DNA from: Escherichia phage SKA64 | DNA: 64,000 nt | Sequence record: OM362897.1 | Strand: one strand, 5' to 3' | Shown here: positions 30,288 through 63,065 of the stretch, in pieces | Position numbering within the stretch: position 1 is the first letter of the stretch | Layout: each line of letters starts with the position of its first letter | Notes under the pieces: model-generated | The model's database searches: none | The model's input: the letters and a program-made list of their open reading frames with translations, nothing else | Told to the model about the DNA's origin: nothing | Position numbers and translations under genes: made by a program

Positions 30288-30656
30288 TTACTTTGTGCGG
30301 TTGTGAACGTTATCGCGTTCAACCATCAAGGCAAGGCGGATCAGTTGATCAGTTGTATCGCGTAAATTGTCGGGCCATGTTTTACTGTTCCAGCTATCCA
30401 TGTTTGATTGTATATAGGTTTCAATGGCTTGATCCATATTATCAAACAAGTTTTCCTCCAGGCTCTCGGCTGTTTCACACTGGAAAGCATTAGCGACACT
30501 ATTAATCAATAAGCAAGCCAGTAAATCAGCATTACGCCAATTTTTACGGATAGTTTCATCTTCCAGATAAGCTACCAAATTAATATTTGCGCCAGTGGTT
30601 GACGTTGCGATCACTTCTTGCGCTTTTTCAACTGCTTTAATTGCCGATTTGCTCAT
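30288..30656 (-). CDS. hypothetical protein
   Basis: internal ATG (MSKSAIKAV) after AAAGAGGAAAAG; track N-terminal extension runs through the promoter hairpin. Confidence 0.55.
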   Translation of the reverse strand: MSKSAIKAVEKAQEVIATSTTGANINLVAYLEDETIRKNWRNADLLACLLINSVANAFQCETAESLEENLFDNMDQAIETYIQSNMDSWNSKTWPDNLRDTTDQLIRLALMVERDNVHNRTK

Positions 30657-30673
30657 CTTCTTTTCCTCTTTGT

Positions 30674-30734
30674 GGGCTTGCTGTATTGCTCGCCCTACGT
30701 GATAAATAATAATAGAAAGGTGATCCGGTGTCAA
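30674..30734 (-). promoter_or_regulatory. promoter + leader hairpin cassette (variant)
   Basis: minus strand TTGACA...TATTAT-like -10, CACGTAGGGCG then weaker hairpin; upstream of 30288..30656. Confidence 0.45.
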
Positions 30735-30864
30735 TAGGTAGAATTGTAAAGATTCGATAGTTTATCTCTTTGATGTTTTGTTGTTTGATAGGTGTTAGCT
30801 ATCAATATATAGCGGGGTCGTCCGGTGATTACCTCCCCCGTTGCCAGTGCCGCCCGTTGAATAA

Positions 30865-30905
30865 GCATAACAAAAAACAGGACAAAAGCAAGCCCTGTTT
30901 TTGTA
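30865..30905 (-). terminator. rho-independent terminator (minus strand)
   Basis: aaacagg...cctgttt hairpin with U-run on minus strand after gene ending 30910. Confidence 0.45.
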
Positions 30906-30909
30906 AAGA

Positions 30910-31113
30910 TTAGATGATTTGCATATCCTCCACGATAATTTCTAATTTCCAAACAAGATGATCTAAGCTCCCTGATAAAAATGATTCCGATACATAACCG
31001 CCATCGGACACCGTAGCAAGGATCTCGCCATTTGCTTGCTCTTTGATTTGAACATCCAGGCGGTTAGCCTTTGCTTTGTTCAGGACGGCGATCAGGCGGT
31101 TAGCTGTAGTCAT
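30910..31113 (-). CDS. hypothetical protein
   Basis: ORF track; GGAAGGA RBS. Confidence 0.55.
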   Translation of the reverse strand: MTTANRLIAVLNKAKANRLDVQIKEQANGEILATVSDGGYVSESFLSGSLDHLVWKLEIIVEDMQII

Positions 31114-31135
31114 GGTGTTTTCCTTCCAGTTGTGA

Positions 31136-31191
31136 GCGGCACCATTGCCGCCCTACGTGATACATCTTACACTATCAGATACATTGTGCAA
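31136..31191 (-). promoter_or_regulatory. promoter + leader hairpin cassette
   Basis: minus strand TTGCAC, 16-17 bp, TAAGAT, then GTAGGG + hairpin gcggcaccattgccgc. Confidence 0.5.
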
Positions 31192-31197
31192 GCTATT

Positions 31198-31389
31198 TTA
31201 GATCTCGTCACCTATATAATCAGATCTGTTCTTCTCTGTCATACGTTTAAACAATTCTTGCATATGGCTGATAGCTTGCAATGTGTCTTCTTCCAGGCTT
31301 GAATCGAGATAATCAGGATCATTCTTTACCTTGCTATGGTTGTGATACCGCAACGCTGCTAATACCTTTCTAACTTGTTCTGCATTCAT
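31198..31389 (-). CDS. hypothetical protein
   Basis: ORF track; AAGGAG RBS. Confidence 0.55.
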   Translation of the reverse strand: MNAEQVRKVLAALRYHNHSKVKNDPDYLDSSLEEDTLQAISHMQELFKRMTEKNRSDYIGDEI

Positions 31390-31401
31390 TTTTATTACTC
31401 C

Positions 31402-31536
31402 TTAAAACCAGGTGCCAACCGTTTCCAATAGGTCACTGACTACCAGAACAACATTGATTAGCACATATTTAATCAGGAAGGGGATAAGCGCCAGCGTCGC
31501 TACTATGATCCCCATTGTGATGATTACCTTTCTCAT
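31402..31536 (-). CDS. 44 aa membrane peptide (not in ORF track)
   Basis: ATG 2 nt after upstream stop; MRKVIITMGIIVATLALIPFLIKYVLINVVLVV... Confidence 0.4.
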   Translation of the reverse strand: MRKVIITMGIIVATLALIPFLIKYVLINVVLVVSDLLETVGTWF

Positions 31537-31538
31537 CG

Positions 31539-31823
31539 TTAGCGGTTTACGTAAGCTTTACCGTTTACGGTCATCGGTATGGCTTCAAGGTCTGGATCTT
31601 CCTTAAGGTCGCGTGCAAGCTCACCGCACCGGACACCCTCGAATCCGTGGTATTCTGTTTCCCCGTCCTTAAAAGTTTTAGCGGCAAGGCATAGGCGATA
31701 ATTAACACCGATCCGGTTTACTGCGTTGATATCGGTTAACGTGATCGATTCCGGCAAATCGTTAGCCATGACAGGCGCGTTAATACCAACAACCAGGGCA
31801 ACTACTGCGATCATCTTTTTCAT
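31539..31823 (-). CDS. secreted protein with Sec signal peptide
   Basis: MKKMIAVVALVVGINAPVMA-ND; GAAGAGGA RBS. Confidence 0.55.
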   Translation of the reverse strand: MKKMIAVVALVVGINAPVMANDLPESITLTDINAVNRIGVNYRLCLAAKTFKDGETEYHGFEGVRCGELARDLKEDPDLEAIPMTVNGKAYVNR

Positions 31824-31858
31824 GTGTCTATCCTCTTCCTATTGCGTTTAATGGGGCG

Positions 31859-32095
31859 TTATTGATTGATGTTATGATGAAAGTTATTTTCTTCAACGGC
31901 TTTTAAAATAAAGGCTGTTACCGCTTTCGTGTCTACTTGTTCGAACGTATCAGAATAAGCCCAATAATGATCATCCCCTACTTTCGGCGGGTAAACCTGG
32001 ACAAGGAGATCGCCACCTGGTTGATCTATAAGCTCAACATGCAAGCCGGATGATTCGGCGGTTTTAACGGCGGTTAATACTGTTGCAATACTCAT
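31859..32095 (-). CDS. hypothetical protein
   Basis: ORF track. Confidence 0.5.
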   Translation of the reverse strand: MSIATVLTAVKTAESSGLHVELIDQPGGDLLVQVYPPKVGDDHYWAYSDTFEQVDTKAVTAFILKAVEENNFHHNINQ

Positions 32096-32140
32096 AATCT
32101 TTTCCCTTCCTGATGTGGGGCGTTGCCGCCCCTTTGTTGA

Positions 32141-32440
32141 TTAGATCGCTGTTTCCAGTAGTTCGGCTAACGTCTTACCGCCTGATAGTTGGTCTAACGT
32201 TTGCTCTTCTGGCAAGAAATTAGCGGATATTAAACCGACCTGGTTCCCTTTGTGCCAGTTAGCCTGACGGGTGATTCCATCCTTCAAGGATTTTACCGCC
32301 ATTGTGCAACCATCGCCAAATGATTCATTTTTATGGTCCATCACTTCATAAGCGCCCAGCTTGCTGCTGTTAGGCACCATTAACGCAAATACATCACCAA
32401 CAACCAGTTTTTCTACGGTAACAATAGCGATAGTTTCCAT
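32141..32440 (-). CDS. hypothetical protein
   Basis: ORF track; GAGGAAAA RBS. Confidence 0.55.
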   Translation of the reverse strand: METIAIVTVEKLVVGDVFALMVPNSSKLGAYEVMDHKNESFGDGCTMAVKSLKDGITRQANWHKGNQVGLISANFLPEEQTLDQLSGGKTLAELLETAI

Positions 32441-32459
32441 TTTGTTTTCCTCATTATCG

Positions 32460-32515
32460 GCGGCACCATTGCCGCCCTACGCATTAAATATAAATTATCT
32501 AAGAGATTAGATCAA
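32460..32515 (-). promoter_or_regulatory. promoter + leader hairpin cassette
   Basis: minus strand TTGATC ... TATTTA ... GCGTAGGG + gcggcaccattgccgc. Confidence 0.45.
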
Positions 32516-32518
32516 GGA

Positions 32519-32710
32519 TTATTTTGTAAAGATTACAGCTTCATCAAAATTTTCAACATAGTAAGCAAGTTTTTCATTTGCTGCAACCAGTTGTAAAAGT
32601 TGGTCGTAAGATAATCCATTGATCCCCTCTTCGTTGTTTAAAGCCTCGATGATTTCATCAACGGGCGCAAAAAACATGTTATTCGATTCCAGGTAGGTGA
32701 TAGTTTTCAT
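32519..32710 (-). CDS. hypothetical protein
   Basis: ORF track; AAAAGGTAAAAC RBS. Confidence 0.55.
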   Translation of the reverse strand: MKTITYLESNNMFFAPVDEIIEALNNEEGINGLSYDQLLQLVAANEKLAYYVENFDEAVIFTK

Positions 32711-32732
32711 AATGTTTTACCTTTTTCGGGGA

Positions 32733-32788
32733 GCGGCACCATTGCCGCCCTACGTGGTAAATATTAGCACACTGGCGATCTGTGTCAA
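32733..32788 (-). promoter_or_regulatory. promoter + leader hairpin cassette
   Basis: minus strand TTGACA, 16 bp, TAATAT, TTACCACGTAGGG + gcggcaccattgccgc. Confidence 0.55.
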
Positions 32789-32794
32789 TACTTT

Positions 32795-33181
32795 TTATTC
32801 AATATAAATCAAATTATCTTCACCAATGTAAGCCGACACGTTCGGCATAAACTTAGCTGCATTGGTTAGGCGGTTCGCCGTGTTAGTGGTGTATATTTCA
32901 GGGCGATCCCAAAAGCCTACGCCGTGACCGTTACGGGTAAAATGTAAATCATTCCCGATCTGGTTGGCTGTTGCGCCGTCGCTCATTGCCTCAGAGATAG
33001 CGGCAAGATTAGCATTAATAAAGGCTGTTACATCCTGGGCGATCCGTTCGTCCGCGCTAGGAGAAAAATCATAATCGTCTAAGTTATCAATAAAATTACC
33101 TTCATGATCCCTTGCTGATTCAGCAAAAATAAAGGCTTCTTTATAGCCGTTGATGATTTCAATAATGATTTCTGTTTTCAT
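32795..33181 (-). CDS. hypothetical protein
   Basis: ORF track; AAGAGAGA RBS. Confidence 0.55.
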   Translation of the reverse strand: MKTEIIIEIINGYKEAFIFAESARDHEGNFIDNLDDYDFSPSADERIAQDVTAFINANLAAISEAMSDGATANQIGNDLHFTRNGHGVGFWDRPEIYTTNTANRLTNAAKFMPNVSAYIGEDNLIYIE

Positions 33182-33195
33182 GTTGTGTCTCTCTT

Positions 33196-33300
33196 TTAGC
33201 CGATACCGTGGGAAGATAGGATCATGTTAGCCATAGTTGCAACCACTCCAACCGATAACGCCAGGCCCACTACTACGACCGTGAAAATTTTCTCTAACAT
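33196..33300 (-). CDS. 34 aa hydrophobic peptide (not in ORF track)
   Basis: MLEKIFTVVVVGLALSVGVVATMANMILSSHGIG between hairpin cassette and next gene. Confidence 0.4.
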   Translation of the reverse strand: MLEKIFTVVVVGLALSVGVVATMANMILSSHGIG

Positions 33301-33318
33301 GATTCTACCCTCATTAAT

Positions 33319-33380
33319 GGGCGTTGCCTTATTGCCCCGCCCTACGAAATACATTCTACCCGATTTATAATTGTTGTCAA
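33319..33380 (-). promoter_or_regulatory. promoter + leader hairpin cassette (variant stem)
   Basis: minus strand TTGACA ... TCGTAGGGCGGGG ... GC stem. Confidence 0.45.
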
Positions 33381-33381
33381 A

Positions 33382-33651
33382 TTATTTTTTCAAGCTTGAC
33401 CACTCAAAACACGGGGCGATCTCGTTAAAACTTGTGCCCTGTAAAGCACATAATTTTTTAGCAATAGCCGCCGTGACCTGGCGCTGTACGCGCGGATCTG
33501 CTACTGATTGGAGAAAGTAGGCGGCTTTATATGTGATCATGCTTTCACCTGTTTCCTTGTTAACATGATGCACTATTTTAGCCTTATCATCTTTTACCAG
33601 GATGTAACCGGATTCGATGGCCTTGATTGCAACGTCTAATGATATTTTCAT
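33382..33651 (-). CDS. hypothetical protein
   Basis: ORF track; intergenic hairpin ggcgggggagtattccccgcc upstream without promoter. Confidence 0.55.
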   Translation of the reverse strand: MKISLDVAIKAIESGYILVKDDKAKIVHHVNKETGESMITYKAAYFLQSVADPRVQRQVTAAIAKKLCALQGTSFNEIAPCFEWSSLKK

Positions 33652-33698
33652 GATTTACCTCTTTATTGACGGCGGGGAATACTCCCCCGCCTCATTAA

Positions 33699-33869
33699 TT
33701 ATTCTTCATCGTCGCCGTTATAGTATTCAATGCCATTTTCATCGGTTACGGTGATGTTAACGCCACCGATAGCAACACGATCACGGGCAAACGTCATAGC
33801 TTCATTTAAATCTTCAGACCAAAAAATATTGTGACCTTTGCGCGATACATAAAACATAGTCGGGATCAT
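33699..33869 (-). CDS. hypothetical protein (56 aa)
   Basis: internal ATG (MIPTMFY) after AGAAGAGAAAC; track extension covers hairpin. Confidence 0.5.
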   Translation of the reverse strand: MIPTMFYVSRKGHNIFWSEDLNEAMTFARDRVAIGGVNITVTDENGIEYYNGDDEE

Positions 33870-33890
33870 GATTTGTTTCTCTTCTGTTGT

Positions 33891-33953
33891 GAGCGGTGGA
33901 CCATTCCGCCGCTCTATGTAATAAACTTTACTACGTTGTTTGCCTACTGTCAA
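33891..33953 (-). promoter_or_regulatory. promoter + leader hairpin cassette
   Basis: minus strand TTGACA, 17 bp, TAAAGT, ACATAGAGCGG + gagcggtggaccattccgccgctc. Confidence 0.5.
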
Positions 33954-33954
33954 A

Positions 33955-34239
33955 TTATTTTTTAATGTTTTGCCCTACAAAATTGATCACTTCCTTAAGC
34001 TGTCTCTCTGTCATGATCGTACCTGGTAACTCTTCTTTAATTTCTTCTGGTAAATAGATATTACCGCGCCAGGTTAACAAACAACCGTTTTGATCTTCGC
34101 AGATAGAATAAGAAAACATCCACTCGCAATCATTCTCAAGCTCCCAAAAACACAAAAAGTCTTCTTTCCCTAAGTTTTCAACGGTTAAGCATAATCCGCG
34201 ACGTGCTGCATAATTAGTTAGGCTTTTTGTAATTTTCAT
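33955..34239 (-). CDS. hypothetical protein
   Basis: internal ATG (MKITKSL) after AAGAGAGAAAAATC. Confidence 0.55.
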   Translation of the reverse strand: MKITKSLTNYAARRGLCLTVENLGKEDFLCFWELENDCEWMFSYSICEDQNGCLLTWRGNIYLPEEIKEELPGTIMTERQLKEVINFVGQNIKK

Positions 34240-34260
34240 GATTTTTCTCTCTTCTTGTGA

Positions 34261-34316
34261 GCGGCACCATTGCCGCCCTACAAGATACATATTATCAGAC
34301 TACGCGGACTTGTCAA
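34261..34316 (-). promoter_or_regulatory. promoter + leader hairpin cassette
   Basis: minus strand TTGACA, 16 bp, TAATAT, CTTGTAGGG + gcggcaccattgccgc. Confidence 0.55.
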
Positions 34317-34317
34317 A

Positions 34318-34428
34318 CTATTTTTTCTTTTTCTTTGCTTCCAACCGTCTAAGGTTACGGCTTGACTTATTGCGCAAGGCGCTTAGATCGTCGTACCCTT
34401 TCCATGCTTGCATATCTTTCGGATTCAT
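34318..34428 (-). CDS. 36 aa basic small protein
   Basis: internal ATG of track ORF 34318..34590 after GGGGGATAAC; MNPKDMQAWKGYDDLSALRNKSSRNLRRLEAKKKKK. Confidence 0.4.
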   Translation of the reverse strand: MNPKDMQAWKGYDDLSALRNKSSRNLRRLEAKKKKK

Positions 34429-34438
34429 GTTATCCCCC

Positions 34439-34717
34439 TTAACGATTATAAACATTATGGATGGCTTCAAAGGCAAGATGACCATAAGCCGCCAAATCGG
34501 GATTGATCCAAGCGTTATCCAACATCGTTTCAAGGACTGTGGAATCATCGTATAAAGCATCATAGAAATCTGCACGGATGATCGTTTCAATGTCGTCCGG
34601 TGTTAGTTTGTCGTTCAACTTGCACACTGTTTCAACGTCAACACCAATTTTCCAATTTTGTAAATTAGTGGTTAACATTGTTTTCATTTCTTCGGTTGTT
34701 AATTTAACGATGGTCAT
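34439..34717 (-). CDS. hypothetical protein
   Basis: ORF track; AGAAGAGAGAAAAAATC RBS. Confidence 0.55.
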   Translation of the reverse strand: MTIVKLTTEEMKTMLTTNLQNWKIGVDVETVCKLNDKLTPDDIETIIRADFYDALYDDSTVLETMLDNAWINPDLAAYGHLAFEAIHNVYNR

Positions 34718-34738
34718 GATTTTTTCTCTCTTCTGTTA

Positions 34739-34796
34739 GGCGGGGCGCTTGTCGCCCCTATGTGATACATCTTATCAGGTTGATTCAGCTTGTCAA
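34739..34796 (-). promoter_or_regulatory. promoter + leader hairpin cassette
   Basis: minus strand TTGACA, 16 bp, TAAGAT, CACATAGGGG + ggcggggcgcttgtcgcccc. Confidence 0.55.
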
Positions 34797-34797
34797 A

Positions 34798-34959
34798 CTA
34801 TTTGTTAGCCGGATTATATGCCAGGACCGCGCCGCTTGCTTTCACACTTTCCGCTTCATAGTTGCGCAGATCGTTTTCTGTAAGATTGAGCGCGATCACT
34901 TCCTCGACTTCAACGCCAGCGACAAGGGCGATCTCTTTGATAATGTCTGTTATTTTCAT
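34798..34959 (-). CDS. hypothetical protein (53 aa)
   Basis: internal ATG (MKITDII) after TAAGGTG. Confidence 0.5.
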   Translation of the reverse strand: MKITDIIKEIALVAGVEVEEVIALNLTENDLRNYEAESVKASGAVLAYNPANK

Positions 34960-34969
34960 GGTGTGCACC

Positions 34970-35089
34970 TTATAAGATGATTGATAAGATAGTGACAACG
35001 AAAGCGATTATACTGATGGCAAATGTCATCTTTTTACCTTCGGATACTGCCGGATTCTCTACCGTGTATTCTACTGTGTACTTGCTCAT
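34970..35089 (-). CDS. 39 aa membrane peptide (not in ORF track)
   Basis: ATG after GAGAGGA; MSKYTVEYTVENPAVSEGKKMTFAISIIAFVVTILSIIL. Confidence 0.4.
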   Translation of the reverse strand: MSKYTVEYTVENPAVSEGKKMTFAISIIAFVVTILSIIL

Positions 35090-35112
35090 CGTGTAATCCT
35101 CTCGTTTGCTTT

Positions 35113-35169
35113 GGGAACTATTCCCGCCGCCCTATGAATTAAATATACACTATCTCAAAATGATTGCAA
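35113..35169 (-). promoter_or_regulatory. promoter + leader hairpin cassette
   Basis: minus strand TTGCAA, 17 bp, TATATT, TCATAGGGCGGCGGG + gggaactattccc. Confidence 0.5.
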
Positions 35170-35186
35170 GCCTTTTTCTAAATTAT

Positions 35187-35471
35187 TTATGCAGTAAACA
35201 AACCATCATTTACAACGGCGGCGATGATCTCCCGTGCCATTGATTCAGGGAAAGGGGCGCTATAGTCCTGGCTTGTCTCATCGGTATCAGTGATCCAATG
35301 ATAAGCTAACGAGTAAAAGCCTTTACTAACTGTTTTCAGTGAGATGATGATCACTCGGTCAAGCTTATTGGTGAATGTTGCCGTTAATGTGTTACCATCC
35401 TGCGTCATGTTGGACAAGTAAGCGGGATCATTAATCAGGGAAAACATTAGCACGGTGTTAGCTTTACTCAT
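35187..35471 (-). CDS. hypothetical protein
   Basis: internal ATG (MSKANTV) after TTGAGGA. Confidence 0.55.
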   Translation of the reverse strand: MSKANTVLMFSLINDPAYLSNMTQDGNTLTATFTNKLDRVIIISLKTVSKGFYSLAYHWITDTDETSQDYSAPFPESMAREIIAAVVNDGLFTA

Positions 35472-35492
35472 GATTGCATCCTCAAAGGGGCG

Positions 35493-35546
35493 CGGCACCA
35501 TTGCCGCCCTACACGATAACTATAACACAATATAAAACAGGATCAA
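35493..35546 (-). promoter_or_regulatory. promoter + leader hairpin cassette
   Basis: minus strand TTGATC ... TATAGT ... GTGTAGGG + gcggcaccattgccgc. Confidence 0.45.
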
Positions 35547-35749
35547 CCTTTATTTTTCCACGGTGTCAGCTTGTTAATCATTGGTGATAAATAGCGTTTA
35601 CCAACGTAAAACAGCACGCCAACTGATGCAACGGCGGCGATCTCATGCATAGCCGACGGGAAACGGGTATCATAATAAGATCCAATAATAGCAATAGCGG
35701 CAACGGCTGCAACGTCGATAATGATTTTTTCTTGTTTTGCGGTGATCAT
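35543..35749 (-). CDS. small membrane protein (68 aa)
   Basis: internal ATG (MITAKQEK) after AAAAAGGTAAA; hydrophobic AAVAAIAIIGSYY. Confidence 0.5.
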   Translation of the reverse strand: MITAKQEKIIIDVAAVAAIAIIGSYYDTRFPSAMHEIAAVASVGVLFYVGKRYLSPMINKLTPWKNKG

Positions 35750-35770
35750 AATATTTACCTTTTTGTATGG

Positions 35771-35829
35771 TGGGGGAACTATTCCCCGCCTGATGTAATA
35801 CAGTTTAACAGGTCCGGTTATGGTGTCAA
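35771..35829 (-). promoter_or_regulatory. promoter + leader hairpin cassette
   Basis: minus strand TTGACA, 16 bp, TAAACT, + ggcggggaatagttccccca hairpin. Confidence 0.5.
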
Positions 35830-35835
35830 CCACTT

Positions 35836-36021
35836 TTAAAGATATTTTATACTGATAACGTTTTCCGGTTTAACCTTGTTGTGATGTGCATCAACATAGA
35901 TCAAACCATCGTCAGAAAAGCCCAGGATCACGCCCTGCGCGATAAAACCGTATTCGTCACGGTAACGCACGGCTATTTTTAATGTTGCGTTGTAGGCTGT
36001 TTTAAGCTCGTTTAAAGTCAT
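35836..36021 (-). CDS. hypothetical protein
   Basis: ORF track. Confidence 0.5.
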   Translation of the reverse strand: MTLNELKTAYNATLKIAVRYRDEYGFIAQGVILGFSDDGLIYVDAHHNKVKPENVISIKYL

Positions 36022-36039
36022 TTTTGTTTATCCTCTACA

Positions 36040-36070
36040 TGTAAAAAGAAAGGGCGCTTGGTGCGCCCTT
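36040..36070 (-). terminator. rho-independent terminator (minus strand)
   Basis: GGGCGCaccaaGCGCCC hairpin followed on minus strand by UUUCUUUUU. Confidence 0.6.
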
Positions 36071-36076
36071 GTTATG

Positions 36077-36223
36077 TTAATTCTCTAAATCCATCCAATT
36101 ATATTTGTCACTCTTCCCGCGCTTTGTTTTATTGCGCTTGTCGCCTTTGCGGATCACTTCCTCATTCCAGGCCTTGCGGATCTTGGAAGATTGAATTTTT
36201 TCTGCACGATTAGATGTATTCAT
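36077..36223 (-). CDS. 48 aa basic small protein (not in ORF track)
   Basis: ATG after AAAGAGGAAAC; MNTSNRAEKIQSSKIRKAWNEEVIRKGDKRNKTKRGKSDKYNWMDLEN. Confidence 0.45.
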   Translation of the reverse strand: MNTSNRAEKIQSSKIRKAWNEEVIRKGDKRNKTKRGKSDKYNWMDLEN

Positions 36224-36243
36224 TTTGTTTCCTCTTTATATGA

Positions 36244-36296
36244 GCGGCACCATTGCCGCTATATTATTAATTTAAACTGTTTTGTAAAATTGTCAA
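36244..36296 (-). promoter_or_regulatory. promoter + leader hairpin cassette
   Basis: minus strand TTGACA ... TAAATT ... gcggcaatggtgccgc. Confidence 0.5.
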
Positions 36297-36302
36297 GGTT
36301 TA

Positions 36303-36656
36303 TCATTCATAAGAGCAAGCAAGGATCACGCCTGCAATATAAAGCCAATAATTTTCCCTTTCTCGTTGGATTTTATCATCGCTGCTATTCTCTTTAATGT
36401 ATCCCCAGGATGTTAACAAGCGATCAATTTCCCAATATTCGAAAGCGATATTAATATCTGATGGCAAACCTTGTAACCATGATGCTATTGCTCTGATAAT
36501 GTTATGATCGTAACGTTTTTGGTTATCGGTATACCAATACTCGGATTTAAAACAGCGCATCAATTCCGCGATCTTCTCTTTATCTTCTGTGATGCCATAC
36601 TTGCTATAATCAATTGAGGCCAGAATATAAAGTTTAATTGCATTTTGTGCTTTCAT
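36303..36656 (-). CDS. hypothetical protein
   Basis: ORF track; AGAGAGACACC RBS. Confidence 0.55.
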   Translation of the reverse strand: MKAQNAIKLYILASIDYSKYGITEDKEKIAELMRCFKSEYWYTDNQKRYDHNIIRAIASWLQGLPSDINIAFEYWEIDRLLTSWGYIKENSSDDKIQRERENYWLYIAGVILACSYE

Positions 36657-36676
36657 GGTGTCTCTCTTCTGTTGTT

Positions 36677-36733
36677 GGCGGCACCATTGCCGCCCTACTT
36701 GTTACATCTTACTGGATTTTTAAAACTTGTCAA
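36677..36733 (-). promoter_or_regulatory. promoter + leader hairpin cassette
   Basis: minus strand TTGACA, 16 bp, TAAGAT, AACAAGTAGGG + ggcggcaatggtgccgcc. Confidence 0.55.
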
Positions 36734-36955
36734 TCATTTTTCTACTATCATTTGATACCCTGTTTCAACGTTAGAAAACACTGTTATCCCGTCCTGGCGT
36801 TCACTCATTAACATACAAGGCGCTAACATCCTTTCTACTGCCTTGCACTCGTTGTAAACGGCGGTTATATCTCCTGCTGCCTTGTCTTCTGTAGTAAATG
36901 TCTCATTTACGTAAACTTGACCAGCGACAACGGCGACAATAGCGAAAGTGATCAT
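36734..36955 (-). CDS. hypothetical protein
   Basis: ORF track; AAGGAAAC RBS; shares first codons ATGATCACTTTCGCTA with gene starting 37196. Confidence 0.55.
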   Translation of the reverse strand: MITFAIVAVVAGQVYVNETFTTEDKAAGDITAVYNECKAVERMLAPCMLMSERQDGITVFSNVETGYQMIVEK

Positions 36956-36989
36956 GATGTTTCCTTGTTAGTAGTGGTTTCTCTTCTCT

Positions 36990-37025
36990 ATAGCGCCCAT
37001 TATAGGCGCTATAACGAAAAGTCAA
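36990..37025 (-). promoter_or_regulatory. promoter + hairpin cassette (variant; -10 inside stem)
   Basis: minus strand TTGACT then atagcgccTATAATgggcgctat palindrome. Confidence 0.4.
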
Positions 37026-37028
37026 CTA

Positions 37029-37196
37029 TTATTTTTTAAGGCTTAAAGTGCCTAGCTTATCAGCGTGACGCAGACCAGGGAAGATCCATTTTCCTGATTC
37101 ATCTTTCACCGGGGCTTTAAAAGTAGCGCCCAGGTTGGCGGCGTTAACTTTACGTGCAACGTTGCGAGCGGCTTCACGGGTAGCGAAAGTGATCAT
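37029..37196 (-). CDS. 55 aa small protein (not in ORF track)
   Basis: ATG after GAGGAAAATATC; MITFATREAARNVARKVNAANLGATFKAPVKDESGKW... Confidence 0.45.
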   Translation of the reverse strand: MITFATREAARNVARKVNAANLGATFKAPVKDESGKWIFPGLRHADKLGTLSLKK

Positions 37197-37220
37197 GATA
37201 TTTTCCTCTTCTCTTTGTTA

Positions 37221-37282
37221 GGCGGTGGACCATTCCGCCGCCTTGATGTAATACAGTTTACTTTATTTTTGCAGTATTGCAA
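37221..37282 (-). promoter_or_regulatory. promoter + leader hairpin cassette
   Basis: minus strand TTGCAA ... hairpin ggcggcggaatggtccaccgcc. Confidence 0.4.
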
Positions 37283-37288
37283 GCGGTT

Positions 37289-37504
37289 TTATGAAATAAA
37301 TGTCAAAGTAAAATCATAATCTTTTGACAGTTTATATTGCACCTTGTTACCGTATATGTCACCTTTACGTAAAGATCCACGGATACCGATAACATCCTTC
37401 ACGTCTTTTAAATTTTTCACGCCTGTAATGTCTTTGTTGAAATACTCGTCATCTGAAAATAAAACTTGCTTTGCATTTTTTAACAAGGTGCGGATATTAG
37501 CCAT
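37289..37504 (-). CDS. hypothetical protein
   Basis: internal ATG (MANIRTLL) after AAGAGAGATTATC. Confidence 0.5.
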   Translation of the reverse strand: MANIRTLLKNAKQVLFSDDEYFNKDITGVKNLKDVKDVIGIRGSLRKGDIYGNKVQYKLSKDYDFTLTFIS

Positions 37505-37526
37505 TTTGATAATCTCTCTTACTAGG

Positions 37527-37584
37527 GGCGGCAATAGTGCCGCCCTATGAATTACATTTTACTAATTTTAGTTGTCTTGTCAAT
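37527..37584 (-). promoter_or_regulatory. promoter + leader hairpin cassette
   Basis: minus strand TTGACA, 16 bp, TAAAAT, TCATAGGG + ggcggcactattgccgcc. Confidence 0.55.
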
Positions 37585-37591
37585 ATTATTT

Positions 37592-37819
37592 TTAGTTTAA
37601 TTGATCCAGGCATAACAGACGATCAACGTTGAGATCGGTCAGGCTAATCGTTGGCACCTGGTAGGATTCGATGTACTCAACGCTCGACCATTGCCCAAAG
37701 TTAGCGACCGCCCAGCTATTCAATGAGGAGTGAAGATCATCCCCTTTCTTCTCGGTGATAACTGCTACTACCTGGGAGATTCCAACCGTGCCGGATACGC
37801 GAACAATAACGATAGCCAT
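37592..37819 (-). CDS. hypothetical protein
   Basis: ORF track; AAAGAAAGGTTATC RBS. Confidence 0.5.
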   Translation of the reverse strand: MAIVIVRVSGTVGISQVVAVITEKKGDDLHSSLNSWAVANFGQWSSVEYIESYQVPTISLTDLNVDRLLCLDQLN

Positions 37820-37841
37820 AATGATAACCTTTCTTTGATTT

Positions 37842-37902
37842 GGCGGGAAACCATTTCCCGCCCTATGCGATAAACTACACCAGATTAAAAAACGTTGTCA
37901 AC
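37842..37902 (-). promoter_or_regulatory. promoter + leader hairpin cassette
   Basis: minus strand TTGACA ... GCATAGGG + ggcgggaaatggtttcccgcc. Confidence 0.5.
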
Positions 37903-37910
37903 TGCTTTTA

Positions 37911-38150
37911 TTACATTCCTACCATAGCGGCACGGATTGCAGTTTTACTATACTTGAAACCATCAGGTGTATGAGTGATTCCATCCTGTTTTAATCTGTA
38001 GCACATCAGATCCGCCGCTTTATCTTTATTGCCGCACTCATTTATTAAACCTACAGCGTATAAGTATAACGATTCATCATTATTAATCCAAAGGCTTACA
38101 TTCCAATGAGTTTTATTTTTGTGACCGTTGTACATTTTAGATTTAGCCAT
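37911..38150 (-). CDS. hypothetical protein
   Basis: ORF track; AAAGAGATTAAC RBS. Confidence 0.5.
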   Translation of the reverse strand: MAKSKMYNGHKNKTHWNVSLWINNDESLYLYAVGLINECGNKDKAADLMCYRLKQDGITHTPDGFKYSKTAIRAAMVGM

Positions 38151-38174
38151 GATGTTAATCTCTTTTTCAGTGAG

Positions 38175-38232
38175 GCGGGAACTATTCCCGCTCTCGATAT
38201 AAGTATTATATGCTTTTTATTCGTGCTGTCAA
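38175..38232 (-). promoter_or_regulatory. promoter + leader hairpin cassette
   Basis: minus strand TTGACA ... TAATAC ... gcgggaatagttcccgc. Confidence 0.5.
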
Positions 38233-38238
38233 TGCTTT

Positions 38239-38604
38239 TTATAAATCTTTTTTACGTTTTACATCGCTTGCATGACTGTATACAGCGATCCCATTATCAC
38301 GGCAAAAGCGGGAAAGGTAGGCATAATTTGAAAACTCTTTACCTTCCAGGTTGATAACCTTGCTAAACTCTTCTAGGGCGACGGTATCAAAATGATCACC
38401 ATAGCCATATTGAAACGGAACGTTAACCACCTCGATCAGTTTACCGCCGATCTCAACGTCAACCATTAAAGAAAAATATGTATTACCGTAGGACCGTTGA
38501 AACCAGCGACGGGCGCTAATATGCACCGCCTCAATGCTGGATAATTCAATTTTAGCCGTGTTAGCCAGGGTAGCATAAGCGGAAACATTAATATTAATAG
38601 CCAT
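38239..38604 (-). CDS. hypothetical protein
   Basis: internal ATG (MAININ) preferred. Confidence 0.5.
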   Translation of the reverse strand: MAININVSAYATLANTAKIELSSIEAVHISARRWFQRSYGNTYFSLMVDVEIGGKLIEVVNVPFQYGYGDHFDTVALEEFSKVINLEGKEFSNYAYLSRFCRDNGIAVYSHASDVKRKKDL

Positions 38605-38636
38605 GATGATAACCTTTTTCATTGTTGGCGGGAAAC

Positions 38637-38696
38637 CACTTCCCGCCCTATGTGGTAAACTATACTAGAATTTTAAACAATGTCAACCGTTTTTAT
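38637..38696 (-). promoter_or_regulatory. promoter + leader hairpin cassette
   Basis: minus strand TTGACA ... TAGTTT ... CACATAGGG + ggcgggaagtggtttcccgcc. Confidence 0.5.
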
Positions 38697-39055
38697 TCGT
38701 AAATTTTACCGCTTTCAGCCCATACCATAACGCGGCGCATACTATCCCAAGTGTTTTGATCCAGGTTTAAGCCGTGCAACTCTTCGGTACTTTCCAGACC
38801 AGGTACCGCCTTGTTGTAAGTCGCATATAAGCGCCCTTGATACTCATACGCCAGAGTAAGATCCGTTTGAATCATCTTTTTAAGCATAGCATTAAGCATC
38901 ATATTAGCGGCATGTTGATCACGTTTTAGCGGTAACATATCAATAAAGGCGCGATAAGCTGAAACATGAATATCAACCGTTTCACGTGGTAAATTTTTCA
39001 TGTCATCGCGGAAAGATACCAGATTAAACATGATAGTATTGATTTGCTTGCTCAT
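38693..39055 (-). CDS. hypothetical protein
   Basis: internal ATG (MSKQINTI) preferred; track extension covers hairpin. Confidence 0.5.
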   Translation of the reverse strand: MSKQINTIMFNLVSFRDDMKNLPRETVDIHVSAYRAFIDMLPLKRDQHAANMMLNAMLKKMIQTDLTLAYEYQGRLYATYNKAVPGLESTEELHGLNLDQNTWDSMRRVMVWAESGKIYE

Positions 39056-39076
39056 TGTGTTACCCTTTTTTGTTTT

Positions 39077-39138
39077 GGCGGGGAAGTATTCCACCGCCCT
39101 ATGTGTTACATCTTATCAGATTAAAAAACGTTGTCAAG
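39077..39138 (-). promoter_or_regulatory. promoter + leader hairpin cassette
   Basis: minus strand TTGACA, 16-17 bp, TAAGAT, ACACATAGGG + ggcggtggaatacttccccgcc. Confidence 0.55.
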
Positions 39139-39155
39139 AATATTTTTAGATAATT

Positions 39156-39437
39156 TTAACTGTATGATCCACATCGTTCGCAGTAGTGATCATCGTCGTC
39201 ATCAGCTACCTGGCTGATAAAGTGATCTACTTTTGCTTTTAGGTTATTATAATTATTTTCTACTTCCTTTAATCGCTCCTGATAGTATCCCAGGGCTTCA
39301 ATATACGCCGCCTCTTCTGTTTTTTCACGCATGGCTAAATTCATGCCGCGCGTATCATCATACAGCCAAAAACCATCGGTGCACTCACTCATTGAAAGGG
39401 TAGGGCTTAACTCTTTATGATTAATTACCTTGCTCAT
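39156..39437 (-). CDS. hypothetical protein
   Basis: internal ATG (MSKVINHK); C-terminal CERCGS. Confidence 0.5.
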   Translation of the reverse strand: MSKVINHKELSPTLSMSECTDGFWLYDDTRGMNLAMREKTEEAAYIEALGYYQERLKEVENNYNNLKAKVDHFISQVADDDDDHYCERCGSYS

Positions 39438-39447
39438 AGTGTGCGCC

Positions 39448-39552
39448 TTATAGAATGATTGAAACAACAATTGCTACAGTGATCCACACTGGAACGGCTA
39501 ACAAAATAGCGTTAATCGTTCCAACCGTCAAACTATTTTCTTTATTAATCAT
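39448..39552 (-). CDS. 34 aa membrane peptide (not in ORF track)
   Basis: MINKENSLTVGTINAILLAVPVWITVAIVVSIIL directly downstream of a cassette. Confidence 0.4.
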   Translation of the reverse strand: MINKENSLTVGTINAILLAVPVWITVAIVVSIIL

Positions 39553-39581
39553 TGTAAGCCTCTTGCATAATTTCACTATGA

Positions 39582-39638
39582 GCGGCACCATTGCCGCCCT
39601 ACGTGGTAAATATTATGCCAGTGGCGGCGATATGTCAA
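39582..39638 (-). promoter_or_regulatory. promoter + leader hairpin cassette
   Basis: minus strand TTGACA ... TAATAT, TTACCACGTAGGG + gcggcaatggtgccgc. Confidence 0.55.
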
Positions 39639-40201
39639 AGACTATTTTCAAAGTTTTCTAGTGCGATCCTTTTTTCTTCCTCTGTTGGCTGATAATCAGG
39701 AAAAGCATCAACACACAACAACGGCGGGATCTCTTCGTACTCTTCCTCTTCCGTTGTCTCCTCGTCTTCCTCCTGGGCTATGGCTGCAATTTTGGCTAAT
39801 TTTCTTTCAGCTTGAATCAATTTACCATCAAGTACGTTTTTTGCCATATTGTAAGCGGTCCAGGTTATGCGCTTACTTTCTAATGCTTCCTCAAGCGCCG
39901 CTATCTTGCTGGGGTATTCATCCAGGACACGAAAAGCCGGATCAACTTTGTACAAAGGATTATCTTTCGCGCCGTCGCTCGCATCTTCCGCACTGGATAA
40001 ATCAGCGTTACCATTTGCCAGCCAGCCAGGGCGCACATAACGCGCTTTTACGTTGCCGTTACTACGTGCTAATCTGTTACCTATTTGCTCACCGCTATAT
40101 CCCGTGGATTCATCGATAAGATGATCGGTAATGATGCGCGGATCATCTGCTTCATGTTTTACCCAAGACTGGATCACATATTCGCGGCCCATATTAACCA
40201 C
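39635..40201 (-). CDS. hypothetical protein with acidic C-terminal region
   Basis: ORF track; AAAAGGTGG RBS. Confidence 0.55.
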   Translation of the reverse strand: MVNMGREYVIQSWVKHEADDPRIITDHLIDESTGYSGEQIGNRLARSNGNVKARYVRPGWLANGNADLSSAEDASDGAKDNPLYKVDPAFRVLDEYPSKIAALEEALESKRITWTAYNMAKNVLDGKLIQAERKLAKIAAIAQEEDEETTEEEEYEEIPPLLCVDAFPDYQPTEEEKRIALENFENSL

Positions 40202-40451
40202 CTTTTTTCAACAATTGGCATACTTTAAAAAGACTTGCTGAATCCTTGCAAGGGTAGAAAGATGTACGATAGTCACGTACGCCAACCTTGCGGATCTCGA
40301 TGTTCTCGCATGTTGTTTGATCAAAGATATTTATTTCATCATGCCCCCTTATATAAACATAGTGGGGATGTATTAACGCATATTTTGCTAATCTGTAAAA
40401 AGCGTTATCTTTGAACGCGATCACGTGACCTTTTAATTTGATGTAAAACAT
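40194..40451 (-). CDS. hypothetical protein
   Basis: ORF track; AAGGTGG RBS. Confidence 0.5.
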   Translation of the reverse strand: MFYIKLKGHVIAFKDNAFYRLAKYALIHPHYVYIRGHDEINIFDQTTCENIEIRKVGVRDYRTSFYPCKDSASLFKVCQLLKKGG

Positions 40452-40468
40452 TCTACCACCTTACAAAT

Positions 40469-40523
40469 AGCGGGAACTATTCCCGCTTTATGTAACATAT
40501 TAACAAATTATTCGTTAATGTCA
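40469..40523 (-). promoter_or_regulatory. promoter + leader hairpin cassette
   Basis: minus strand TTGACA ... TAATAT ... gcgggaatagttcccgc. Confidence 0.5.
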
Positions 40524-40527
40524 AGCC

Positions 40528-40800
40528 TTAAAGCAAAAACGCTACATCTTGCGCTTTTAGTGTAGTATCAACCATTTTCGGGCTTTTATAATCAACAAAG
40601 CGCGCGGTTTTTTCAATAGCGAAACCGAGATAATCTTGTTTATTGAATTTACATTCTTTCTTAAATGTTTCCCGCGCCACGGTGATCGCTGCGTCCAGGG
40701 ATAAACGCCCGTCAATGTTGATATTTGCGAAAGATCCGCCACCGCTCATAGGTTTACCAGTGGTGCCAGTTACGATCATTGTTGCGCTATATGATGCCAT
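40528..40800 (-). CDS. hypothetical protein
   Basis: ORF track; AGAAGAGAGAAATC RBS. Confidence 0.55.
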   Translation of the reverse strand: MASYSATMIVTGTTGKPMSGGGSFANINIDGRLSLDAAITVARETFKKECKFNKQDYLGFAIEKTARFVDYKSPKMVDTTLKAQDVAFLL

Positions 40801-40821
40801 GATGATTTCTCTCTTCTGTTA

Positions 40822-40879
40822 GGCGGGGCGCTTGTCGCCCCTATGTGATACATCTTATCAGGTTGTGGCTTGTTGTCAA
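40822..40879 (-). promoter_or_regulatory. promoter + leader hairpin cassette
   Basis: minus strand TTGACA ... TAAGAT, CACATAGGGG + ggggcgacaagcgccccgcc. Confidence 0.55.
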
Positions 40880-40884
40880 GACTT

Positions 40885-41082
40885 TTATTCTATTCCTGCA
40901 ATCTGCTTAACGCGCTTGCATTTTGCAGTATGCTGATCTTCTGTAATTACTCCCATTTCTAACAGTGAATCAATGAAAGATAAAACCGTTTCATGATCAT
41001 CTTGGGGATGACTGAACTCAGTAAAACCGTTTACTATTACGTTGATTTGTCCAGCTTTCGCCACAATGTGCAATGTTGCCAT
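40885..41082 (-). CDS. hypothetical protein (65 aa)
   Basis: internal ATG (MATLHIV) after GGAG. Confidence 0.5.
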   Translation of the reverse strand: MATLHIVAKAGQINVIVNGFTEFSHPQDDHETVLSFIDSLLEMGVITEDQHTAKCKRVKQIAGIE

Positions 41083-41103
41083 GATCTTAACTCCAAATAG
41101 TGA

Positions 41104-41160
41104 GCGGCACCATTGCCGCCCTACGTGGTAAATATTATGCCGCCACCTGGCGAACGTCAA
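41104..41160 (-). promoter_or_regulatory. promoter + leader hairpin cassette
   Basis: minus strand TTGACG ... TAATAT, TTACCACGTAGGG + gcggcaatggtgccgc. Confidence 0.5.
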
Positions 41161-62989: not shown

Positions 62990-63048
62990 TTGACATAGTT
63001 CTTAAAAAGAGTAAGATATATCACATGAAGCGGGGAATAGTTCCCCGC
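62990..63048 (+). promoter_or_regulatory. promoter + leader hairpin cassette (only + strand copy)
   Basis: TTGACA, 16 bp, TAAGAT, then gcggggaatagttccccgc hairpin, then GAGAGGAGAAAAG RBS and ATG 63066. Confidence 0.55.
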
Positions 63049-63065
63049 AAAGAGAGGAGAAAAGA

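Follow-up and report, generated by a model that had tools for sequence, protein, structure and literature searches.

Promoter-early stem-loop (PeSL) cassettes are known from the T4-like phages RB49/phi1, PST/T4, and nt-1/KVP40 (Arbiol et al. 2010, PMC2839356; Comeau et al. 2014, PMC4122927). PeSL stem-loops occur at variable positions in five subclasses, mostly between or over the −35 and −10 boxes, and have been shown to terminate transcription (PMC2839356); excised mini-circles, detectable by inverse PCR, are a further feature of these cassettes. Other described elements with which a hairpin in an early leader may be compared are the stabilizer hairpins in the 5′ untranslated regions (UTRs) of ompA and papA (Emory, Bouvet and Belasco 1992; PMC3997798) and the boxB hairpin of lambdoid nut sites, which serves N antitermination. 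Here, we analyzed a stretch of 64,000 nucleotides from Escherichia phage SKA64 (sequence record OM362897.1; the whole stretch is referred to as the window), in which a 10.6-kb block of small open reading frames (ORFs) on the minus strand carries many copies of a cassette consisting of a sigma70-type promoter followed by a GC hairpin. We favor, with a probability of roughly 0.55, the reading that this is an early-promoter cassette in which a 5′-terminal hairpin protects and insulates each mRNA, and whose repetition drives modular shuffling of genes.

The cassettes were found by reading the minus strand and subsequently by scripted scans and curation. This yielded 24 near-consensus sigma70-type promoters on that strand between positions 30656 and 41160, and one copy on the plus strand (Table 1), in agreement with the original prediction of about 25 cassettes. 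The plus-strand copy, which had been placed at 62990-63048, is real, and the ORF downstream of it encodes TerC (Pfam PF03741, E = 9e-39), as had been read. The cassettes are approximately 85 bp long (about 75-90 bp), and the order of their parts, i.e., promoter, leader hairpin, ribosome-binding site (RBS), and ATG, is as first described. The −35 box is exactly TTGACA in 17 of the 24 cassettes, and the −10 box reads TAnnnT except at 37901, where it is TGTAGT. Both boxes thus follow the predicted layout with this one deviation, and the spacer, predicted at 16-18 bp, measures 16-17 bp with an exception of 15 bp at 37025. In a consensus scan, the cassette sites score 9-12 of 12, and 20 sites on the minus strand match at least 10 of the 12 positions. 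The arrangement is not random: the pattern TTGACA-N16-18-TANNNT-N6-7-RTAGGG was observed 11 times (0.00 expected) and RTAGGGCGG 14 times (0.27 expected), the latter always on the minus strand and between 31.1 and 41.1 kb.

The flanks of the promoter are also shared between copies. The 18 nucleotides (nt) located 5′ of the −35 box contain 76% A+T, compared with 61% window-wide, with the consensus AaAAaAa and a resemblance to an UP element, and a stop triplet (counted without regard to frame) is found 3-13 nt from the −35 box in 24 of 25 cassettes. The discriminator kTAyCAC is conserved. The hexamer RTAGGG, described earlier as a conserved part of the cassette, is present in 17 of the 23 hairpin-bearing minus-strand copies, whereas the remaining six have variants, which are ATAGAG in one cassette and AAAG, CGAGAG, ATCAAG, ATCAGG, and ATATAG in the other five. 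On the 3′ side of the hairpin the leader is purine-rich, and the ATG follows 15-27 nt beyond the hairpin, a distance less constant than that between the −10 box and the stem. Five good sigma70-like promoters located elsewhere (+7210, +48662, +49693, +50732, and −30221) are directly followed by a Shine–Dalgarno (SD) sequence and an ATG, without a leader hairpin. The hairpin therefore belongs to the repeated cassette, including the TerC copy, and not to every promoter of the phage.

A GC hairpin is located downstream of the −10 box in 23 of the 24 minus-strand promoters, with energies of −8 to −17 kcal/mol, one copy being degraded. The stem starts 9-12 nt after the −10 box in 19 of these 23, and overall the distance ranges from 7 nt at 40524 to 16 nt at 35169, where the hairpin is degraded. 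The four stems quoted in the original prediction are all present, as reverse complements; the dimensions given there (stems of 6-9 bp and loops of 4-7 nt) need adjustment, since stems reach 10 bp (range 6-10 bp, with G-U pairs counted and at most one mismatch) and loops comprise 3-5 nt, mostly 3-4 nt. The 5′ arms are G/A-rich and the 3′ arms C/U-rich.

Transcription from sigma70 promoters usually starts 7-8 nt after the −10 box, at a purine that is preceded by a pyrimidine (Y−1/R+1). The R of RUAGGG, used here as the predicted start, is the 8th nucleotide after the −10 box, and a pyrimidine precedes it in 19 of 19 cases (the 18 RTAGRG cassettes and the TerC copy). The first 40 nt from the predicted start were folded as RNA for 20 cassettes, and z scores were calculated relative to shuffled sequences. 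A single hairpin of −11 to −17 kcal/mol (z = −2.5 to −5.6) was obtained for 16 of the 19 hairpin-bearing cassettes that were folded. The folded hairpins begin at nt 2-6 (mostly 4-5) of the predicted RNA, so that a start at this R would leave 1-5, mostly 3-4, free nucleotides at the 5′ end; the SD sequence and the AUG are unpaired. The folds at 35829 and 35546 are unremarkable compared with shuffled sequences, the degraded hairpin at 35169 has an energy of −7.8 kcal/mol (z = −0.8), and the leader of the cassette at 37025 is unstructured (0 kcal/mol).

Being situated between consecutive genes on the same strand, and having a G-rich 5′ arm and a C-rich 3′ arm, the hairpins could act as PeSL-type attenuators that stop read-through from the promoter of the preceding gene and make each small gene an insulated unit. 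PeSL stem-loops with G-runs and C-runs reduced expression of a downstream lacZ as strongly as rrnB T1 (PMC2839356). However, a terminator scan of the minus strand revealed no T-run after any leader hairpin, the tails being A/C-rich (e.g., CUCACAAGAAG), whereas the same scan detected sites with T-runs in the same block and its vicinity, at 36070, 30902, and 29714, in addition to weaker ones. The homologous sites in phAPEC8 are annotated as ARNold terminators. Since the T-run is lacking, the leader hairpins are not intrinsic terminators, and a Rho-independent terminator reading was rejected. Furthermore, the hairpin lies downstream of the start predicted for its own promoter, which entails that an efficient terminator would abort its own transcript, and it keeps its distance from the −10 box and not from the upstream stop codon. 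Attenuation is, in our view, rather unlikely.

The hairpins stand about 50-60 nt after the preceding stop codon, and stable GC hairpins without T-runs at such a place could also be protectors of 3′ ends that resemble repetitive extragenic palindromic (REP) elements. They would then block 3′-to-5′ exonucleases at the 3′ side of the preceding cistron and stabilize the upstream mRNA, a role that the two hairpins without a promoter (Table 1) would suit. Here too, the near-fixed distance is that from the −10 box and the predicted start, not that from the upstream stop. Moreover, the first cassette (41160) and the TerC cassette (62990) also have hairpins, and no minus-strand ORF of at least 60 amino acids is found upstream of 41160, where the DNA appears to be non-coding. 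We consider 3′-end protection very unlikely. Based on the near-fixed distance after the −10 box, the lack of a T-run, and the unstructured RBS, the hairpin is instead best tied to the 5′ end of its own transcript.

To count base pairs, 53 distinct hairpins were indexed from the GCGG core; a whole-leader MAFFT alignment with mis-registered 3′ arms and a left-anchored alignment were excluded from these counts. The GCGG/CCGC base hardly varies (50-53 of 53). Above the core, the pair at position 4 is G-C in 34 hairpins and C-G in 11, the next pair (position 5) is A-U in 36, G-C in 13, and G·U in 2, and the pair below the core is G-C in 24, G·U in 13, and A-U in 6. When the 3′ partners were permuted column-wise at the variable positions, the observed pairing was reached in 0 of 2000 permutations. 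Using trimmed, base-anchored arms (alignment A2), 85.2% of the cells were paired, compared with 77.0% after shuffling, and covariation amounted to 0.272 versus 0.147; none of 500 shuffles reached this value, and slid controls gave 0.02-0.11. Using 29 distinct hairpins with 3-nt loops, anchored at the apex and aligned by MAFFT from sequence only (alignment A5), the corresponding values were 87.2% versus 72.5% for pairing and 0.430 versus 0.193 for covariation (0 of 500 shuffles; slid controls at most 0.157), and changes on both sides were found in 6 of 10 pairs.

Hence, pairing is retained across variants and across genera. The earlier suggestion that stems differ between copies and nevertheless stay complementary, due to selection on the structure, holds to this extent, with a covariation signal above all shuffles in both alignments; the signal is, however, shallow, and both base and apex are conserved in sequence. 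Independent compensatory events are few, roughly six to eight, because the copies are related. In addition, the sequences used for covariation were cut around detected hairpins, and part of the signal is supplied by paired insertions that shift the register. The apex is AAU(G/A)GU in most variants, and RUAGGG is conserved as well; taken together with the conserved GCGG/CCGC base, this means that the hairpins constitute a narrow sequence family, as opposed to a structure free of sequence constraint. To a large extent, the variety of hairpins looks like a handful of “alleles” that would have been moved among loci by recombination.

The paired arms might also matter at the level of DNA only, as an operator for a dimeric repressor, a cruciform, or a recombination hotspot, in which case the RNA hairpin would be incidental. 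The repeat spans roughly +4 to +25, where repressors that block RNA polymerase typically bind; it also contains crossovers (see below), and the types of mismatch show no clear preference for the sense RNA. On the other hand, the GGCGG-CCGCC half-sites are 6-12 nt apart, depending on the copy, and the inner arms vary yet stay complementary, as expected of a hairpin but not of a dimer site with rigid geometry. G·U pairs are, moreover, frequent and include sites that alternate between G·U, G-C, and A-U. A role restricted to DNA seems highly improbable.

Homologous blocks were compared in the phapecoctaviruses phAPEC8, tuntematon, Ro121c4YLVW, Mt1B1_P17, nieznany, and PNJ1809-36, in inny and muut (Justusliebigvirus), in ime (Vequintavirus), and in IMG/VR contigs. 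The cassette architecture is common to all homologous blocks compared. Leaders were ascertained by promoter and downstream ORF only, ignoring the hairpin. Among unique Stephanstirmvirinae leaders collected in this manner, 106 of 161 have a GC hairpin at most 16 nt from the −10 box, compared with 4.4% of shuffled leaders, and when all loci are considered, the stem starts 10-11 nt after the −10 box in 70 of 113 unique leaders. The hairpins of Vequintavirus lack RTAGGG; the GGCGGGAA..TTCCCGCC stem recurs there, while some stems are unrelated (GGGGC aacaa GCCCC; GGGGCAAG acg TTTGCCCC) and occupy the same position upstream of orthologous genes. Judging from these comparisons, the hairpin design spans subfamily boundaries. 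In rV5-like phages, a hairpin is seen at a similar distance after the −10 box in a minority of early promoters.

Cassette-like DNA is confined to genomes of the Phapecocta-, Justusliebig-, and Vequintavirus types and a Serratia phage, and the 144 records similar to the cassette include no T4-like phages. A search of IMG/VR with one block protein gave 2 loci. A pattern scan of the same database gave 30 loci, in which contigs with a single match are at the estimated chance level and the real relatives are four large contigs (97-153 kb) resembling E. coli phages. Among other phage genomes, the cassette was found in Phapecoctavirus, Justusliebigvirus, and, in part, Vequintavirus. A host origin of the cassette, as a REP-like repeat or from a prophage, was rejected, as 5,426 complete E. 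coli genomes contained no match.

The hairpin type differs between phages for orthologous genes in 15 of 22 orthologue clusters. The commonest hairpin (class A) has an AUGG loop in nearly every Phapecoctavirus copy, whereas every Justusliebigvirus copy reads AUAG; each loop recurs at several paralogous positions. Such homogenization across a lineage points to gene conversion or to co-evolution with a partner. The latter possibility would be in line with a protein-binding RNA operator, where RUAGGG and the AAURGU-apex hairpin would form a tag on early mRNAs for a phage or host factor controlling translation, stability, or antitermination. The hairpin would then be more than a generic 5′ cap-like structure, and the factor reading the tag would turn the entire early class on or off at once or spare it from phage-induced mRNA decay, which is as doubtful as the operator itself; if true, the difference between AUGG and AUAG loops would reflect co-evolution with the factor. 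The conservation of RTAGGG (including the single ATAGAG), of the stem base, and of the AAU(G/A)GU apex indeed exceeds what pairing needs, and the GGCGGGAA..TTCCCGCC stem recurs in Vequintavirus in the absence of RTAGGG. However, the loops vary (acaag, ctat, atac, tgt, and aac), the stems range from 6 to 10 bp, and the stem starts a few nucleotides nearer to or farther from the −10 box, depending on the copy. Among the ten block ORFs examined, of about 35, none was a candidate binding protein, and gene conversion among copies could account for the conservation equally well. An operator of this kind is considered unlikely.

Recombination was assessed by comparing the block with eight related loci by BLAST and chaining the matches, which resolved 28 different junctions, with breakpoints at 33 different positions. 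Cassettes make up 23% of the block, and 22 of the 33 breakpoints lie inside them, compared with 7.4 expected (0 of 20,000 random placements were as good), an enrichment that is partly confounded because nearly all intergenic DNA in the block is cassette. Several junctions have an overlap of 20-62 nt inside the cassette. In phAPEC8, a single cassette consists of the promoter half of the cassette at 32788 (57/57) and the leader half of the one at 32515 (32/33); the switch point lies within a shared 21-nt sequence, GTAGGGCGGCAATGGTGCCGC, and the intervening ORF of 63 codons is absent. In nieznany, the promoter half of 34316 (56/59) is joined to the leader half of 32515 (34/35), and 1.78 kb between them are missing. 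The crossovers of both chimeric cassettes fall in the shared 21-nt hairpin.

Units consisting of a cassette and an ORF (34438-34798 and 30916-31197) are present or absent as wholes. The unit at 34438-34798, comprising cassette 17 and its ORF, is absent from three related phages, and cassette 23 with its ORF is absent from several. Cassettes serve as crossover points at which genes are added or removed, and recombination is a demonstrated evolutionary by-product or co-function of the cassette. The swaps of hairpins between orthologues and the lineage-wide loops point to exchange and homogenization among cassettes. With about 25 like-oriented copies of the same ~85 bp, the cassettes would act as sites of homologous recombination, by which modules of cassette plus ORF would be deleted, inserted, or swapped, and the cassettes homogenized.

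The favored reading combines these properties as follows. The block is presumed to be early, and a cassette heads most of its transcription units. Host RNA polymerase would start each mRNA at the R of RUAGGG, and the hairpin would extend from about nt +4. The base-paired 5′ end, with about 3-4 free nucleotides, would slow 5′-end-dependent decay (RppH and the 5′ sensor of RNase E), and the hairpin would insulate the RBS from the attached ORF. In this manner, dissimilar ORFans would gain a uniform, strong, and early expression context. A 5′-protective, insulating leader is favored because its predicted geometry matches the known protection of E. coli mRNAs. In the 1992 work of Emory, Bouvet and Belasco, a hairpin at most 2-4 nt from the 5′ end reportedly stabilized E. 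coli mRNAs, with its sequence being largely irrelevant. Base pairing at the 5′ end slows cleavage by RNase E more than 10-fold (review PMC3997798).

Several observations weigh against this reading. A start located 2 nt upstream would leave 5-6 free nucleotides and hence weaker protection. A purely structural role needs no conserved GCGG/CCGC base, RUAGGG, or AAURGU apex; their conservation suggests that the copies share a recent ancestor, undergo gene conversion, or have a sequence-specific partner. The hairpins at 33691 and 32132 have no promoter, whereas the promoter at 37025 and the five promoters outside the block have no hairpin, which therefore is not essential to promoter use. By the same ascertainment that was used for Stephanstirmvirinae, a hairpin is found in 7 of 31 Vequintavirus leaders, so that most of them lack it. 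The mismatches (30 G·U versus 17 A·C or C·A, with one hairpin type keeping C·A in 11 copies) favor the sense RNA only weakly. The confounding of the breakpoint enrichment mentioned above counts against the shuffling part.

The resemblance to PeSL cassettes is extensive. In both, an A/T-rich tract with an upstream stop is followed by a sigma70 early promoter, a G-rich/C-rich stem-loop, an SD sequence, and an ATG, and many like-oriented copies adjoin small ORFans within a hyperplastic region. Indels and replacements between close relatives likewise end in cassettes of either kind, and an ORF flanked by two cassettes in one genome has one chimeric cassette as its counterpart in another. The nearest match is the rarest of the five PeSL subclasses, in which the stem-loop is located downstream of the −10 box. 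The two differ in that the present cassettes belong to Stephanstirmvirinae and not to T4-like phages, with no detectable DNA similarity to the latter, and in that the hairpin follows the −10 box in 23 of 24 copies, lies in the predicted transcript, lacks a T-run, and is preceded by the conserved RTAGGG. The comparison with PeSL modules that the original prediction offered tentatively is thus sound for architecture, ORFan context, and recombination behavior, but not for phage lineage, DNA similarity, stem-loop position, or the T-run. We conclude that the cassette is a real but fairly ordinary relative of PeSLs, and not a new class of mechanism.

The ompA and papA hairpins provide a close likeness for the leader. 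In these, a simple, stable hairpin stands about 2-4 nt from the 5′ end, a placement that the predicted start would also give here; in both, an unstructured RBS follows, and the sequence varies while pairing is kept (here, 85-87% versus 72-77% in shuffled sequences). Those hairpins belong to single genes with mapped 5′ ends and measured half-lives, whereas the present ones are multi-copy, have a predicted start and a putative effect, and have a conserved base and apex. Like the present element, the boxB hairpin is short and rich in GC pairs, and it lies in nascent RNA shortly downstream of an early promoter. It has, however, a 5-bp stem and a GNRA-like pentaloop, is accompanied by boxA, and occurs once per operon, whereas loops here are 3-4 nt and variable, boxA is lacking, and there is a copy per gene.

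We found no description of the cassette in the literature on promoters and stem-loops of phAPEC8, phi92, PVP-SE1, Vequintavirus, and Stephanstirmvirinae. The GenBank record of phAPEC8 (JX561091) contains 20-mers labeled “Putative promoter determined with PHIRE,” GTAGGGCGGCAATGGTGCCG and GGGCGGCGGGAATAGTTCCC, which are the same element; they adjoin, directly downstream, features labeled “host dependent promoter (MEME).” Because of their position after a consensus sigma70 promoter and their self-complementarity, the PHIRE 20-mers appear to be starts of leaders and not promoters, meaning that the repeat was recorded in 2012 but probably misread. This reading corrects an annotation that has been propagated since then, as the “PHIRE promoters” of phAPEC8-like phages would be the first ~20 nt of sigma70-driven leaders.

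The findings also extend the PeSL idea, i.e., that regulatory cassettes double as joints for shuffling ORFans, to Stephanstirmvirinae and, in part, Vequintavirinae, which suggests that a PeSL-like strategy is convergent or in general use in large lytic coliphages. The near-fixed start of the hairpin, at about +4 of the predicted transcript, makes the cassette a clean, testable case of 5′-end protection. In addition, the natural set of about 50 hairpin variants, each with a strong promoter, provides potential expression parts.

The 10.6-kb region is 93% identical to Escherichia phage tuntematon over 89% coverage and has matches in 284 phage records, mainly of Phapecoctavirus and Justusliebigvirus, with Vequintavirus matching over short stretches; the taxonomy lines of the best matches read Stephanstirmvirinae. 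From the identity to tuntematon and these taxonomy lines, we assign the source phage to Phapecoctavirus, as a phAPEC8-like myovirus of 150 kb and not a T4-type phage. Coverage of the block among phages of the same genus drops from 89% to 17%, and the block is therefore hyperplastic. It contains about 35 small ORFs, 24 of which have their own cassette and the remainder of which are arranged in units of 2-4 genes, so that the earlier statement that nearly every small gene has a cassette was too broad. Ten larger block ORFs match PHROG families of unassigned function (E = 1e-38 to 1e-112), and a Pfam search of the same ten matched no family; these ten are real genes, but ORFans. Scans of the window gave no tRNA or tmRNA, and a search of both strands of the whole window with Rfam 15 at the gathering threshold gave 0 matches.

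Table 1. Positions of cassettes, other hairpins, and terminator-like sites. Positions are those of the window, except in the last row, which refers to phage ime. For minus-strand cassettes, the higher coordinate is the start of the −35 box. Lower-case letters in hairpins denote loops.
Feature	Position	Strand	−35; −10	Motif before hairpin	Hairpin	ATG or remark
Cassette 1	41082..41160	−	TTGACG (41160); TAATAT (41137-41132)	GTAGGG	41121-41102, GGGCGGCA atgg TGCCGCTC	41082
Cassette 2	40800..40879	−	TTGACA; TAAGAT	ATAGGG	40841-40825, GGGGCG acaag CGCCCC	40800
Cassette 3, TAGGG-less variant	40451..40524	−	TTGACA; TAATAT		40489-40467, AAAGCGGGAA tag TTCCCGCTAT	40451
Cassette 4	39552..39638	−	TTGACA; TAATAT	GTAGGG	39599-39580, GGGCGGCA atgg TGCCGCTC	39552
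Cassette 5	39055..39137	−	TTGACA; TAAGAT	ATAGGG	39098-39077, GGCGGTGGA atac TTCCCCGCC (one U·C mismatch)	39055
Cassette 6	38604..38686	−	TTGACA; TATAGT	ATAGGG	38647-38627, GGCGGGAAG tgg TTTCCCGCC (apical G·U)	38604
Cassette 7, variant	38150..38232	−	TTGACA-16-TATAAT (12/12 consensus)		38193-38173, GAGCGGGAA tag TTCCCGCCT	38150
Cassette 8	37819..37901	−	TTGACA; TGTAGT	ATAGGG	37862-37842, GGCGGGAAA tgg TTTCCCGCC	37819
Cassette 9	37504..37583	−	TTGACA; TAAAAT	ATAGGG	37545-37526, GGGCGGCA ctat TGCCGCCC	37504
Cassette 10, variant	37196..37282	−	TTGCAA; TAAACT	ATCAAGG	37243-37220, AGGCGGCGGA atgg TCCACCGCCT (internal C·A)	37196
Cassette 11, atypical	36955..37025	−	TTGACT-15-TATAAT	ATAGAG in the usual place	37014-36988, 12-bp inverted repeat TTATAGCGCCTA taa TGGGCGCTATAG, straddling and centered on the −10 box	
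Cassette 12	36656..36733	−	TTGACA; TAAGAT	GTAGGG	36694-36677, GGCGGCA atgg TGCCGCC	36656
Cassette 13, variant	36223..36296	−	TTGACA; TAAATT	ATATAGCGG	36260-36243, AGCGGCA atgg TGCCGCT	36223
Cassette 14, variant	35749..35829	−	TTGACA; TAAACT	ATCAGG	about 35791-35769, GGCGGGGAA tag TTCCCCCACC (imperfect)	35749
Cassette 15	35471..35546	−	TTGATC; TATAGT	GTAGGG	35509-35490, GGGCGGCA atgg TGCCGCGC	35471
Cassette 16	35089..35169	−	TTGCAA; TATATT	ATAGGGCGGCGGGAAtagTTCCC	35125-35113, degraded, 5 bp left	
Cassette 17	34717..34796	−	TTGACA; TAAGAT	ATAGGG	34758-34742, GGGGCG acaag CGCCCC	34717
Cassette 18	34239..34316	−	TTGACA; TAATAT	GTAGGG	34278-34259, GGGCGGCA atgg TGCCGCTC	34239
Cassette 19	33869..33953	−	TTGACA; TAAAGT	ATAGAG	33914-33891, GAGCGGCGGA atgg TCCACCGCTC	33869
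Cassette 20	33300..33380	−	TTGACA; TAGAAT	GTAGGG	33342-33319, interior loop, GGGCG..GC aauaag GC..CGCCC	33300
Cassette 21	32710..32788	−	TTGACA; TAATAT	GTAGGG	32750-32731	32710
Cassette 22	32440..32515	−	TTGATC; TATATT	GTAGGG	32476-32459, GGCGGCA atgg TGCCGCC	32440
Cassette 23	31113..31191	−	TTGCAC; TAAGAT	GTAGGG	31153-31134	31113
Cassette 24	30656..30734	−	TTGACA; TATTAT	GTAGGG	30698-30672, interior loop, GGGC..GC aauaca GC..GCCC	30656
Cassette 25, ahead of TerC	62990..63068	+	TTGACA-16-TAAGAT	atatcacATGAA	63030-63048, GCGGGGAA tag TTCCCCGC	63066
Promoter-poor GC hairpin	33671..33691	−	no recognizable or good promoter		GGCGGGGGA gta TTCCCCGCC	precedes ORF starting at 33651
Promoter-less GC hairpin	32117..32132	−	none		GGGGCG gcaa CGCCCC	precedes ORF starting at 32095
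Intrinsic terminator-like site, for contrast	36050..36070	−			AAGGGCGC accaa GCGCCCTT	followed by TCTTTTT
Further terminator-like sites	30902-30873; 29714-29692	−				with T-runs
Hairpin-bearing early promoters of Vequintavirus ime	27301, 25412, 24695, 21600, 21335	−				

Two kinds of atypical features appear in Table 1. The hairpins at 33671-33691 and 32117-32132 may be half-cassettes derived from recombination, or internal processing or stability elements. Cassette 11 sits exactly on an indel junction, at which four related phages have about 310 bp more, and looks like either a PeSL of the type with the stem-loop over the −10 box or a recombination scar.

The non-coding stretches at both edges of the block (41792-41900; 28501-28712 and 29214-29241) contain AATGAGAATGATTATCATTT-like repeat units, three of which are spaced 29 nt apart. 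These units resemble the E. coli Fur box, with 2 matches having at most 3 mismatches to GATAATGATWATCATTATC (0.04 expected), and the corresponding non-coding stretches are annotated as “repeat_region” in related GenBank records. The repeats could be iterons of an origin or, alternatively, a control region that titrates Fur or responds to iron.

Two groups of public records with unexpected labels share sequence with this phage type. In the 39.7-kb record of Enterococcus phage heks (MT119359), ~760 bp at positions 162-920 are 87% identical to the block, and about 19 records labeled “Campylobacter phage” (MG0656xx; A145, C3, B15, and others) contain genomes of 146-151 kb that belong to this type of E. 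coli phage. Assembly contamination or wrong host labels probably account for these records.

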